Origin: Candidatus Versatilivorator sp.
GTDB lineage: Bacteria > Acidobacteriota > Terriglobia > Versatilivoradales > Versatilivoraceae
NCBI GenBank assembly: GCA_965207735.1
Contig: OZ242296.1
Span: 2,944,001 to 3,008,000, forward strand
Direction: 5' to 3'
DNA: 64,000 nt
Shown here: piece after piece, positions 56,782 to 57,650 of the stretch
How positions within the stretch are numbered: the stretch's first letter is position 1
Layout: the number at the start of each line of letters is the position of its first letter
Made by a program: the position numbers and the translations under genes
The notes under the pieces: model-generated
Told to the model about the DNA's origin: nothing
The model's database searches: none
Seen by the model: only the letters and a program-made list of their open reading frames with translations

Positions 56782-57650
56782 GTAGAGTCGAGGACTGGCG
56801 CGTTGACTATAGGGTCCGGTGGCTATTCCGTCGCTTTCGCTTCGGGCCTCAGTCCGGCTCCCTTATCACGTTTCCAGTCCCCGCTCTCCGAACCGGACGT
56901 GCGGTTTTCCCGCATCTCGGCTCTCCAGTGGGATCATGCGTCTCGCACACAGGTCCCCGCTCGCATCCGTGGACGACTCCTATGGGATTGGCACCCGTCC
57001 CCCACTCCATCCACTTCCGCTCCCGGGTTGCCGCCAGGCCTGTTGATGCCCTGACGACGCCGTCCTCCTCCGACGACCCTTTCACTTTTGCATGTGATGC
57101 TTCCGGAGTCTCCGGCCCTTTTTTGGTCGGGGTTTCAGGCTTTCGCCACTCCCGGGACCCTTCCCCCTTCGGTCACCGCTCCTCACCTGAGGCCCCTTCC
57201 CTCCACCGGTATTACCCGGCTTCTCCGGTACTACAGGCCTCTCCGCCACCCTGTCGGCCTAGACTGACTCTCGCGAGCTTCCGGTTCGGTGCGTGCCTCA
57301 CCACCCACAGGGCTTCCCATGTTGCTGCCTTCTTCCCCTTCCATGCGTGCCAGCGCCACTACCCCGGCGGGTCCAAAGGGGTGCCCGCGTCGCTCGCTTC
57401 CCCCTCCGTCTTCGGCCTTCCCCATTTCTCAGGTGGGTCGGCCCCCGCATTGCCCGTTTCGAGGCCTGCTCGACGTTCACTCGCGTTCCGGCCCGCATGC
57501 TCGCTGAACCGCCTTAAGCGGCCCTTTGACACCAGAGGGCTTCAGACCATATCGTTACCTCCATGATCCGCCCTGGCTGCTACCAACCGGAGCGACAGTT
57601 GTTGGACGGGTTTCGCACCCGTTGGAAGAAGGCGCCTTTCCATGGCGCAC
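56782..57650 (-). ncRNA. ORF-less group II intron (IIB-like ribozyme)
   Basis: Minus strand starts GUGCG and ends ...CUCGACUCUAC; domain V AGAGCCGAGAUGCGGGAAAACCGCACGUCCGGUUC (56890-56924); domain III-like GUAGUACCGGAGAAGCCGGGUAAUACCGGUGGAGGGAAGGGGCC (within 57191-57239); precise insertion without TSD; no RT ORF. Confidence 0.93.

Follow-up and report, generated by a model that had tools for sequence, protein, structure and literature searches.

An intron lacking an open reading frame at the end repeats of IS1380-family elements: a group II ribozyme whose exon-binding loop matches a multicopy transposon tip

Introduction

Group II introns that take a bacterial insertion sequence (IS) as their target include RmInt2 of Sinorhizobium meliloti GR4, which homes into the inverted repeats of ISRm17 and for which retrohoming has been shown by assay (PMC4615759). 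Its authors noted that there are twice as many targets because of the repeats, with one always available on the lagging strand, and they suggested tighter control of the mobility of the host IS (PMC4615759). Here we describe a related arrangement in the genome of Candidatus Versatilivorator sp., where an 869-nt group II intron without an open reading frame (ORF) divides a terminal inverted repeat (TIR) of an IS1380-family element. The intron lies in a 64,000-nt stretch of contig OZ242296.1 (positions 2,944,001 to 3,008,000; hereafter the window), and the whole genome of the source organism was also searched.

Three other described groups of introns are close to this one, as far as the excerpts of the cited reports extend. 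RmInt1/ISRm2011-2, the classic example of an IS serving as homing site, has a multicopy IS as its natural target, an endonuclease-less intron-encoded protein (IEP) and a lagging-strand bias (PMC1802570, PMC4238363, PMC8914252). In Thermosynechococcus elongatus, ORF-less derivatives of TeI3 outnumber their ORF-containing relatives and are mobilised in trans by related IEPs (PMC2882425). Introns of groups IIE and IIF are small IIB-like ribozymes with a 5-nt domain 5 loop and, as a IIF trait, a long domain 6, all of which recur here; exon-binding site 1 (EBS1) is decisive for their choice of the 5′ splice site, and EBS2 is dispensable for their self-splicing in vitro (PMC3753933).

The likeness to RmInt2 extends to an endonuclease-less IEP (encoded here by related introns), apparent EBS-guided insertion within an IS TIR, and two oppositely oriented targets per element, both usable (PMC4615759). 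RmInt2 has its own ORF and is described as class D, whereas the window intron is ORF-less, has IIE/IIF-type traits, is hosted by MITEs (miniature inverted-repeat transposable elements) as well as by the IS, and is present in 28 copies; and retrohoming, assayed for RmInt2, is deduced here from genome patterns (PMC4615759).

Results and Discussion

The intron and its EBS1 hairpin

On the minus strand of the window the intron begins with GTGCG at 57650 and ends with CTCTAC at 56782 (genome positions 3000782-3001650), in agreement with the 5′ GUGYG / 3′ AY rule. A contig representing the empty site, from run X19, links position 56781 directly to TGAGAAATGCGGG and so confirms the exact boundary. 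Domains 1–4 match Rfam RF02003 over the full model (1-138) at 57624-57481 with 80.8 bits (cut-off 49), and domains 5 and 6 match RF00029 at 56925-56782 with 41.2 bits, narrowly above the cut-off of 40, domain 6 containing a long insertion. This copy has no reverse transcriptase (RT) ORF. The 5′ exon ends in TAA-CCCGCATTTCTCA (57663-57651) and the 3′ exon starts with CCAGAG; joined, they read CCCGCATTTCTCACCAGAG, and the transposase-proximal inverted repeat is thereby divided into 13 and 6 nt. The features of the intron and of its pairing with the exon, in which the intron-binding site is abbreviated IBS, are as follows.

56782..57650, minus strand: ORF-less group II intron, 869 nt, GTGCG...CTCTAC (Rfam matches; 28 genome copies)
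56782..56925, minus strand: domains 5 and 6, with a 5-nt GAAAA loop in domain 5 and a long domain 6 (RF00029 alignment)
57414..57443, minus strand: EBS1 hairpin in the D1d region of domain 1 (fold, RNAalifold consensus, compensatory stem)
57425..57431, minus strand: EBS1 loop UGAGAAA, complement of IBS1, covarying with the 5′ exon in relatives
57651..57657, minus strand: IBS1, UUUCUCA, the last 7 nt of the 5′ exon

The original prediction placed EBS1 in a hairpin with a loop complementary to the end of the 5′ exon, and the sequence at 57443-57414 is exactly as it described (GGCC-GA-CCCA-CCUGAGAAA-UGGG-GAA-GGCC on the minus strand). The hairpin folds as ((((..((((.........))))...)))) with -12.1 kcal/mol (z = -2.29), and 4/200 shuffled sequences fold equally well. 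UGAGAAA occurs only once on the sense strand of the intron and matches, as an exact complement, the final 7 nt of the 5′ exon. The 9-nt complementarity that had also been claimed (CAUUUCUCA) does exist, but the UG at its end belongs to the hairpin stem, and the share of the loop is 7 nt.

Covariation between loop and exon was examined in relatives, using the first 470 nt of the intron as query against 61 genomes (this genome and 60 relatives); 21 of the 61 contain a match, including the source genome and 13/13 other genomes of the genus. Of 25 loci with a usable match, 23 were retained and combined with four rows from the source genome to give 27 intron/exon rows from 14 genomes, the two omitted loci being a copy from the source genome itself and one without a 5′ exon in the locus. 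All 27 rows have at least 5 contiguous pairs starting at position -1. For the 16 different exon/loop combinations, contiguous pairing averages 5.75 with the intron's own exon and 2.35 with swapped exons, and 0/10,000 permutations reach the observed value; the rows are often close kin that share a target, such that the independent events are fewer and correspond to roughly nine exon classes.

Within the source genome, an alignment of domain 1 from three intron lineages (A, B and C, described below) has the loop as its most variable stretch, and each loop is complementary to its own exon: UGAGAAA of lineage C to UUUCUCA, UGUAAU of lineage B to AUUACA, and UGUCUUU of lineage A to (A)GGGGCA or AAGACA, the lineage A matches involving G-U pairs. 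RNAalifold applied to 28 domain 1 sequences predicts the same hairpin, and thus structure modelling does not place EBS1 elsewhere. The closing pair of the hairpin is AU in 10 of the 28 rows, UA in 12, GC in 3, CG in 1 and unpaired in 2, and the next pair is CG in 24 and UA in 3. Covariation with the exon, together with the covarying stem, strongly supports the identification of the hairpin loop as EBS1.

Copies and target ends in the genome

The intron-bearing element and the other TIR-like ends of the window are listed here.

55097..57663, minus strand: IS1380-family element carrying the intron, 1698 bp without and 2567 bp with it, flanked by a 4-bp duplication TTAG (plus strand)
57651..57663, minus strand: outer 13 nt of the left TIR (CCCGCATTTCTCA), the entire conserved 5′ exon, common to the 28 copies with variable sequence upstream
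56776..56781, minus strand: inner 6 nt of the split TIR (CCAGAG), with which the 3′ exon begins; CCCGCATTTCTCACCAGAG stands at both IS ends
55097..55115, plus strand: right TIR of the intron-bearing element, an empty target with the 19 nt of the left end inverted
55332..56699, minus strand: IS1380-family transposase gene, 455 amino acids (NF033539 410.6 bits, cut-off 180; PF13701 499.3 bits)
32938..34635: second IS1380 copy, 1698 bp, both ends empty
58635..58647, plus strand: TIR-like end CCGGCATTTCTCA, empty

The genome contains 21 copies of the 1698-bp IS1380 element, with 19-nt TIRs and 4-bp YTAR duplications. The intron is present in 28 ORF-less copies of at least 99.65% identity, 22 of them 100% identical, and there is one further ORF-less copy at 90% identity. 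All 28 follow CCCG[C/T]ATTTCTCA and precede CC, inserted between positions 13 and 14 of the 19-nt TIR; they do not lie at unrelated sites. Upstream of the 13-mer and its 4-nt duplication the copies differ in sequence, and 11 kinds of sequence are found downstream: the transposase-upstream end of the IS (2 copies), its transposase-downstream end (4), the two ends of a 243-bp MITE (end 1 in 11 copies, end 2 in 4), four MITE variants of smaller size, and three ends without an identified partner.

That the target is a multicopy IS1380/MITE end, as first proposed, is borne out by a genome-wide count. There are 238 ends that match the 13-mer with at most one mismatch; 31 of these continue with GTGCGCC and are occupied, and 116 are exact, empty and continue with CC. 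Full ORF-less introns account for 28 of the occupied ends, and the other three hold an ORF-containing intron, a 19-nt stub and a 7-nt footprint. One end is flagged in 27 of the 67 paired elements and both ends are occupied in none, against about 2.7 expected under independence, a difference that is not significant by itself. Four empty targets had been noted in the window, and each has an exact copy of GCATTTCTCACC, at 32941 (+), 34621-34632 (-), 55100 (+) and 58638 (+). With one mismatch allowed, GCATTTCTCACC has 7 matches in the window compared with 0.27 expected, and 0/100 shuffles reach 7; the tip copy at 58635 has CCGG in place of CCCG.

Two of the occupied ends have only the start of the intron. 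In a 243-bp MITE at genome 572744-572986 the 7 nt after the tip are GTGCGCC, the start of the intron, instead of CCAGGTC, possibly a footprint of the imprecise loss of an 869-nt intron. At genome 331238 (-) a tip variant (CCCGCGTTTCTCA) is followed by a 19-nt 5′ stub of the intron and then by unrelated sequence.

ORF-containing relatives and mosaic introns

Fifteen related introns of about 2 kb, each with a 452-amino-acid ORF, are present in the genome and fall into three lineages according to their target, in which a slash marks the insertion point.

Lineage A: 13 copies, in an abundant repeat ...CCACGAAGGGGCA / CGAAG
Lineage B: 1 ORF-containing copy, 1 ORF-less copy and 1 internally deleted mini-copy, in ...CCAATGTATTACA / TTGGG
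Lineage C: 1 ORF-containing copy and 28 ORF-less copies, in the IS tip

The IEPs have RVT_1 and GIIM domains and match TIGR04416 with 332.9 bits (cut-off 300); the domain search returned these two domains only, and no endonuclease domain. Their nearest solved relatives are group IIC RTs, and identity between the lineage C and lineage A proteins is 83%. In the genome as a whole, tblastn found RT genes only in the 15 ORF-containing introns, 14 of them intact and one, in a lineage A copy, broken.

Past position 475, similarity between the ORF-less intron and the ORF-containing forms is detectable in domain 5 (701-782) only, and domains 4 and 6 of the former are unlike those of the latter. The ORF-less introns of lineages C and B (3000782-3001650 and 1134708-1135573) are 94.5% identical to each other from position 471 to the end. 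Domains 1–3 of each are nearest to the ORF-containing intron with which it shares a target lineage (91.9% and 94.9%, compared with 84-87% across lineages). This pattern suggests a recombinational exchange of the targeting half between ORF-carrying introns and an ORF-less chassis.

The target of lineage B is a near-palindromic repeat (CCCCAATGTATTACA / TTGGG) present in 19 copies, 3 of which are occupied (e.g. genome 4589467, 1135574, 4261109); one occupant is a 121-nt internally deleted mini-intron (4260992-4261108). The IS in the window is itself inserted in a very abundant repeat (...AAAGAGTTATCCACGAAGGGCCA[CTAA]GAACGAC..., window 57664-57700 and 55040-55096). A pattern scan finds 405 genome matches to the AAAGAGTTATCCACGAAGGGCCA repeat with at most 2 mismatches, 9 of which continue with the intron start. 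Intron lineage A (13 genome copies) has this repeat as its target, and the repeat is therefore aimed at by two mobile elements.

Retrohoming and other modes of spread

The EBS1 loop UGAGAAA pairs with UUUCUCA of the TIR tip, and we propose that this pairing directs reverse splicing into IS1380/MITE ends, using an RT/maturase that a related ORF-containing intron is predicted to provide in trans. As with RmInt1 and RmInt2, the lagging-strand template, in single-stranded form, would probably be the DNA entered by retrohoming, and each new copy of the IS or a MITE would add two potential targets. Guidance of reverse splicing into the repeat tips by EBS1 pairing (retrohoming) is, on the patterns in this genome, the best explanation of the copies and in our judgement a highly probable one. 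The original prediction of RNA-programmed homing to a multicopy target stands in that retrohoming accounts better than passive spread for the pattern of the copies; the mobility itself is read from that pattern, and the idea is not new (RmInt2/ISRm17).

Four sets of observations favour independent insertions. The host contexts are varied, with both ends of the IS and of the 243-bp MITE used. In a tree built from 15 occupied and 17 empty MITE copies (32 in all), occupancy requires 11 changes, against a mean of 10.8 for shuffled labels, with 338/500 shuffles as low. The host MITEs have a mean identity of 96.7% (minimum 93.8%), compared with at least 99.65% for the introns. Finally, 24/31 occupied ends are co-oriented with the local GC skew, compared with 41/116 exact empty ends (Fisher 3.4e-5 with 50-kb half-windows, skew serving as a proxy), and the contrast is similar with 25-kb and 100-kb half-windows. 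RmInt2 has a preference for the lagging-strand template (PMC4615759), and such a bias is the expectation for an endonuclease-less intron that uses this template; it would also explain why only one end is filled per element.

A rival reading is a single entry into an IS or MITE end followed by passive multiplication through transposition, the EBS1 match being kept for splicing only. The 4-bp duplications around intron-bearing elements are intact, identical MITEs at 5027596 and 5213340 both contain the intron at end 1, and the tree includes a clade of 4 occupied MITEs, all of which would follow from such hitch-hiking. It accounts poorly for 11 downstream kinds at both IS and both MITE ends, for occupancy that is unclustered on the MITE tree, for introns more uniform than their hosts, for the differing strand bias of occupied and empty ends, and for a TIR divided into 13 and 6 nt at every occupied end, and we regard it as improbable. 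The varied contexts, the scatter on the MITE tree, the uniformity of the introns, the strand bias and the 14 intact genes for endonuclease-less IEPs together favour retrohoming over hitch-hiking.

Spread at the DNA level, in which homologous recombination or gene conversion would move the intron between ends without RNA or RT, is less probable still. Upstream homology is limited to the 13-nt tip and the 4-nt duplication, the downstream sequences come from unrelated types of element, and conversion would not produce the observed strand bias. The genome does contain many near-identical repeats, its irregular GC skew suggests rearrangements, and the mosaic structure of the ORF-less introns indicates that intron recombination does happen.

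Least probable of all, in our view, is that the copies are immobile fossils with a loop–exon match left from a past invasion. The window copy has no IEP gene, and the stub and footprint at genome 331238 and 572744 are consistent with such a history; yet 22 copies are 100% identical and 28 at least 99.65%, with host MITEs diverged to 96.7%, the ribozyme domains score above the Rfam cut-offs, and 14 IEP genes are intact. As a weak hint in the same direction, the intron is deep in RNA-library contigs: those of three metatranscriptome studies (X1, X5, X7) cover it far more deeply than its flanks, the summed word depth in X7 being 7,557-162,762 over the intron and 0-179 over the adjacent 5′ region of the transposase gene. 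In X19, a run of unrecorded kind that may be DNA, depth is roughly even across the stretch. These depths are a hint at most and not support, because contigs show no levels, ends or strand, and other organisms may contribute.

Several points weigh against retrohoming. Complementarity alone is no proof of homing, because EBS1–IBS1 pairing is also required in forward splicing, and EBS2 has two rival candidates, one weakly supported and one doubtful (see below). The RNA-library contigs contain no ligated-exon joint, which would in any case be indistinguishable from an empty site. The identity of the mobilising IEP is a deduction only, because the ORF-less and ORF-containing forms have no detectable similarity in domain 4. 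The MITE tree is poorly resolved, with 2/28 inner branches starred, and some copies may have moved with their hosts, because two identical MITEs have the intron at the same end. GC skew is a stand-in for replication direction and its cumulative curve is irregular genome-wide, and lineage A lacks a strand bias (7/13 co-oriented; lineage B, 3/3).

The cumulative GC skew has its minimum at 4.51 Mb and its maximum at 0.73 Mb of 5.26 Mb and is flat from 2.8 to 4.5 Mb, an asymmetry that suggests large rearrangements, perhaps between repeated elements.

Candidates for EBS2 and EBS3

Two stretches of the intron are complementary to parts of the tip beyond IBS1.

57452..57455, minus strand: weakly supported candidate EBS2, GGGC (intron positions 196-199), predicted unpaired, complement of (G)CCC at the TIR tip
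57444..57450, minus strand: rival candidate AUGCGGG, just 5′ of the hairpin, a perfect 7-nt complement of CCCGCAU next to IBS1

GGG[C/U] would pair with the CCC that opens the tip, and intron position 198 is A in exactly those 7 rows with UCC exons, although this tracking of CCC and UCC exons may reflect a single evolutionary event. AUGCGGG and EBS1 together would span all 13 nt of the tip. Its role as EBS2 is doubtful because positions 203-207 and 280-284 form a helix that covaries, its compensatory changes being clear (GC 18 / AU 10; GC 12 / AU 14); lineages A and B have AUACGGAA at this place without matching exons. The lineage alignment contains no informative column for EBS3/IBS3.

Introns in related genomes

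Homologues of the intron occur at the identical CCCGCATTTCTCA tip in three genomes of the same genus (G005, G009, G011) and at similar YTAR/CCC... tips in two others of the genus (G010, G003) and in six of other genera (G001, G053, G056, G048, G047, G055). A further congener, G008, contains the tip CCCATCTTTAACA 18 times (0 for a reversed-pattern control), including 8 inverted pairs, of which four span 2083-2131 bp and four 4078-4080 bp; the larger span corresponds to the element plus a 1996-nt intron starting directly after the 13-mer. At locus 594700-597000 of this genome an ORF-containing intron lies 13 nt inside the CCCATCTTTAACA tip of a 2084-bp element, and 4/8 paired copies of the element are occupied. 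The element encodes an IS1634-family transposase (NF033559, 276.8 bits), and so related introns within the genus aim at the 13-nt tips of two IS families.

IS1380 transposase homologues are present in 5/5 more distant genomes searched, and the TIR tips adjacent to introns were not found at the 9 IS1380 transposase loci inspected there. A simple search for a partner repeat gave none in 14 intron loci of relatives, and the host element was identified for G008 only.

Relation to known systems

Both homing into IS inverted repeats and the proliferation of ORF-less introns are already published (RmInt2/ISRm17; T. elongatus), and current understanding is therefore unchanged. The variant features here are the lack of an ORF, the MITE hosts, the IIE/IIF-like traits, the use of tips of different IS families and the mosaic chassis. 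The target of RmInt1 lies inside its IS and not in a terminal repeat, in which it differs from that of the window intron. A literature search of titles and abstract openings, subscription journals lying outside its coverage, returned no description of a group II intron within MITEs or an IS1380 repeat. The 5-nt domain 5 loop and long domain 6 are traits that point to group IIE/IIF as a candidate class.

As in the TeI3 family, the ORF-less forms outnumber their ORF-containing relatives and the families have diverged in EBS/IBS specificity (PMC2882425). The ORF-less TeI3 introns have one simple shared ORF deletion and recognisable remnants, whereas domains 4 and 6 of the ORF-less form here differ from those of the ORF-containing forms; targeting of transposon end repeats is not mentioned in the text examined of that report (PMC2882425).

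The genome offers a countable population for intron–transposon dynamics (238 ends, 31 occupied, 116 exact and empty), and a natural example of an RNA-guided retroelement living on a DNA transposon and its miniature derivatives, a selfish element on a selfish element. Natural covariation allows the targeting code to be read off directly. The case also suggests small ORF-less ribozymes with a re-aiming of EBS1 that is traceable across species. Since the repeat is divided into 13 and 6 nt, the proposed brake on transposition is plausible; that this division would impair transposition of the occupied element is a speculative suggestion.

A wider possibility, which we advance only tentatively and hold to be more doubtful than probable, is that this intron clade is specialised on the outermost 12-13 nt of transposon end repeats. 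It would re-aim EBS1 between IS families (IS1380, CCCGCATTTCTCA; the IS1634 family, CCCATCTTTAACA, in the congener), swap its domain 1 targeting module between an ORF-less chassis and ORF-carrying relatives, and brake the spread of the IS and MITEs by splitting their repeats. If this were true, transposon and intron numbers would regulate each other.

Other elements at the tips and in the window

An IS1182-family element of 1584 bp (NF033551, 389.6 bits) with the end ...GCGCAGACTC/CTAG is present in 13 copies (e.g. genome 3945662-3947445). It adjoins an IS1380/MITE tip in 9/13 copies, and 7/9 of those tips contain the intron. A shared CTAG target is the likely cause of this adjacency. A tip-like end, CTAG/CCGGCATTTCTCACC, precedes a repeated GGCTCGACTGCGGG motif at window 58635-58760 (+), and no partner repeat was identified for this end. 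Matches to the Acido-Lenti-1 small RNA (RF01687) are located on the plus strand of the window at 21584-21629, 27010-27055 and 46487-46532, with 43.9, 41.4 and 37.2 bits (cut-off 37).

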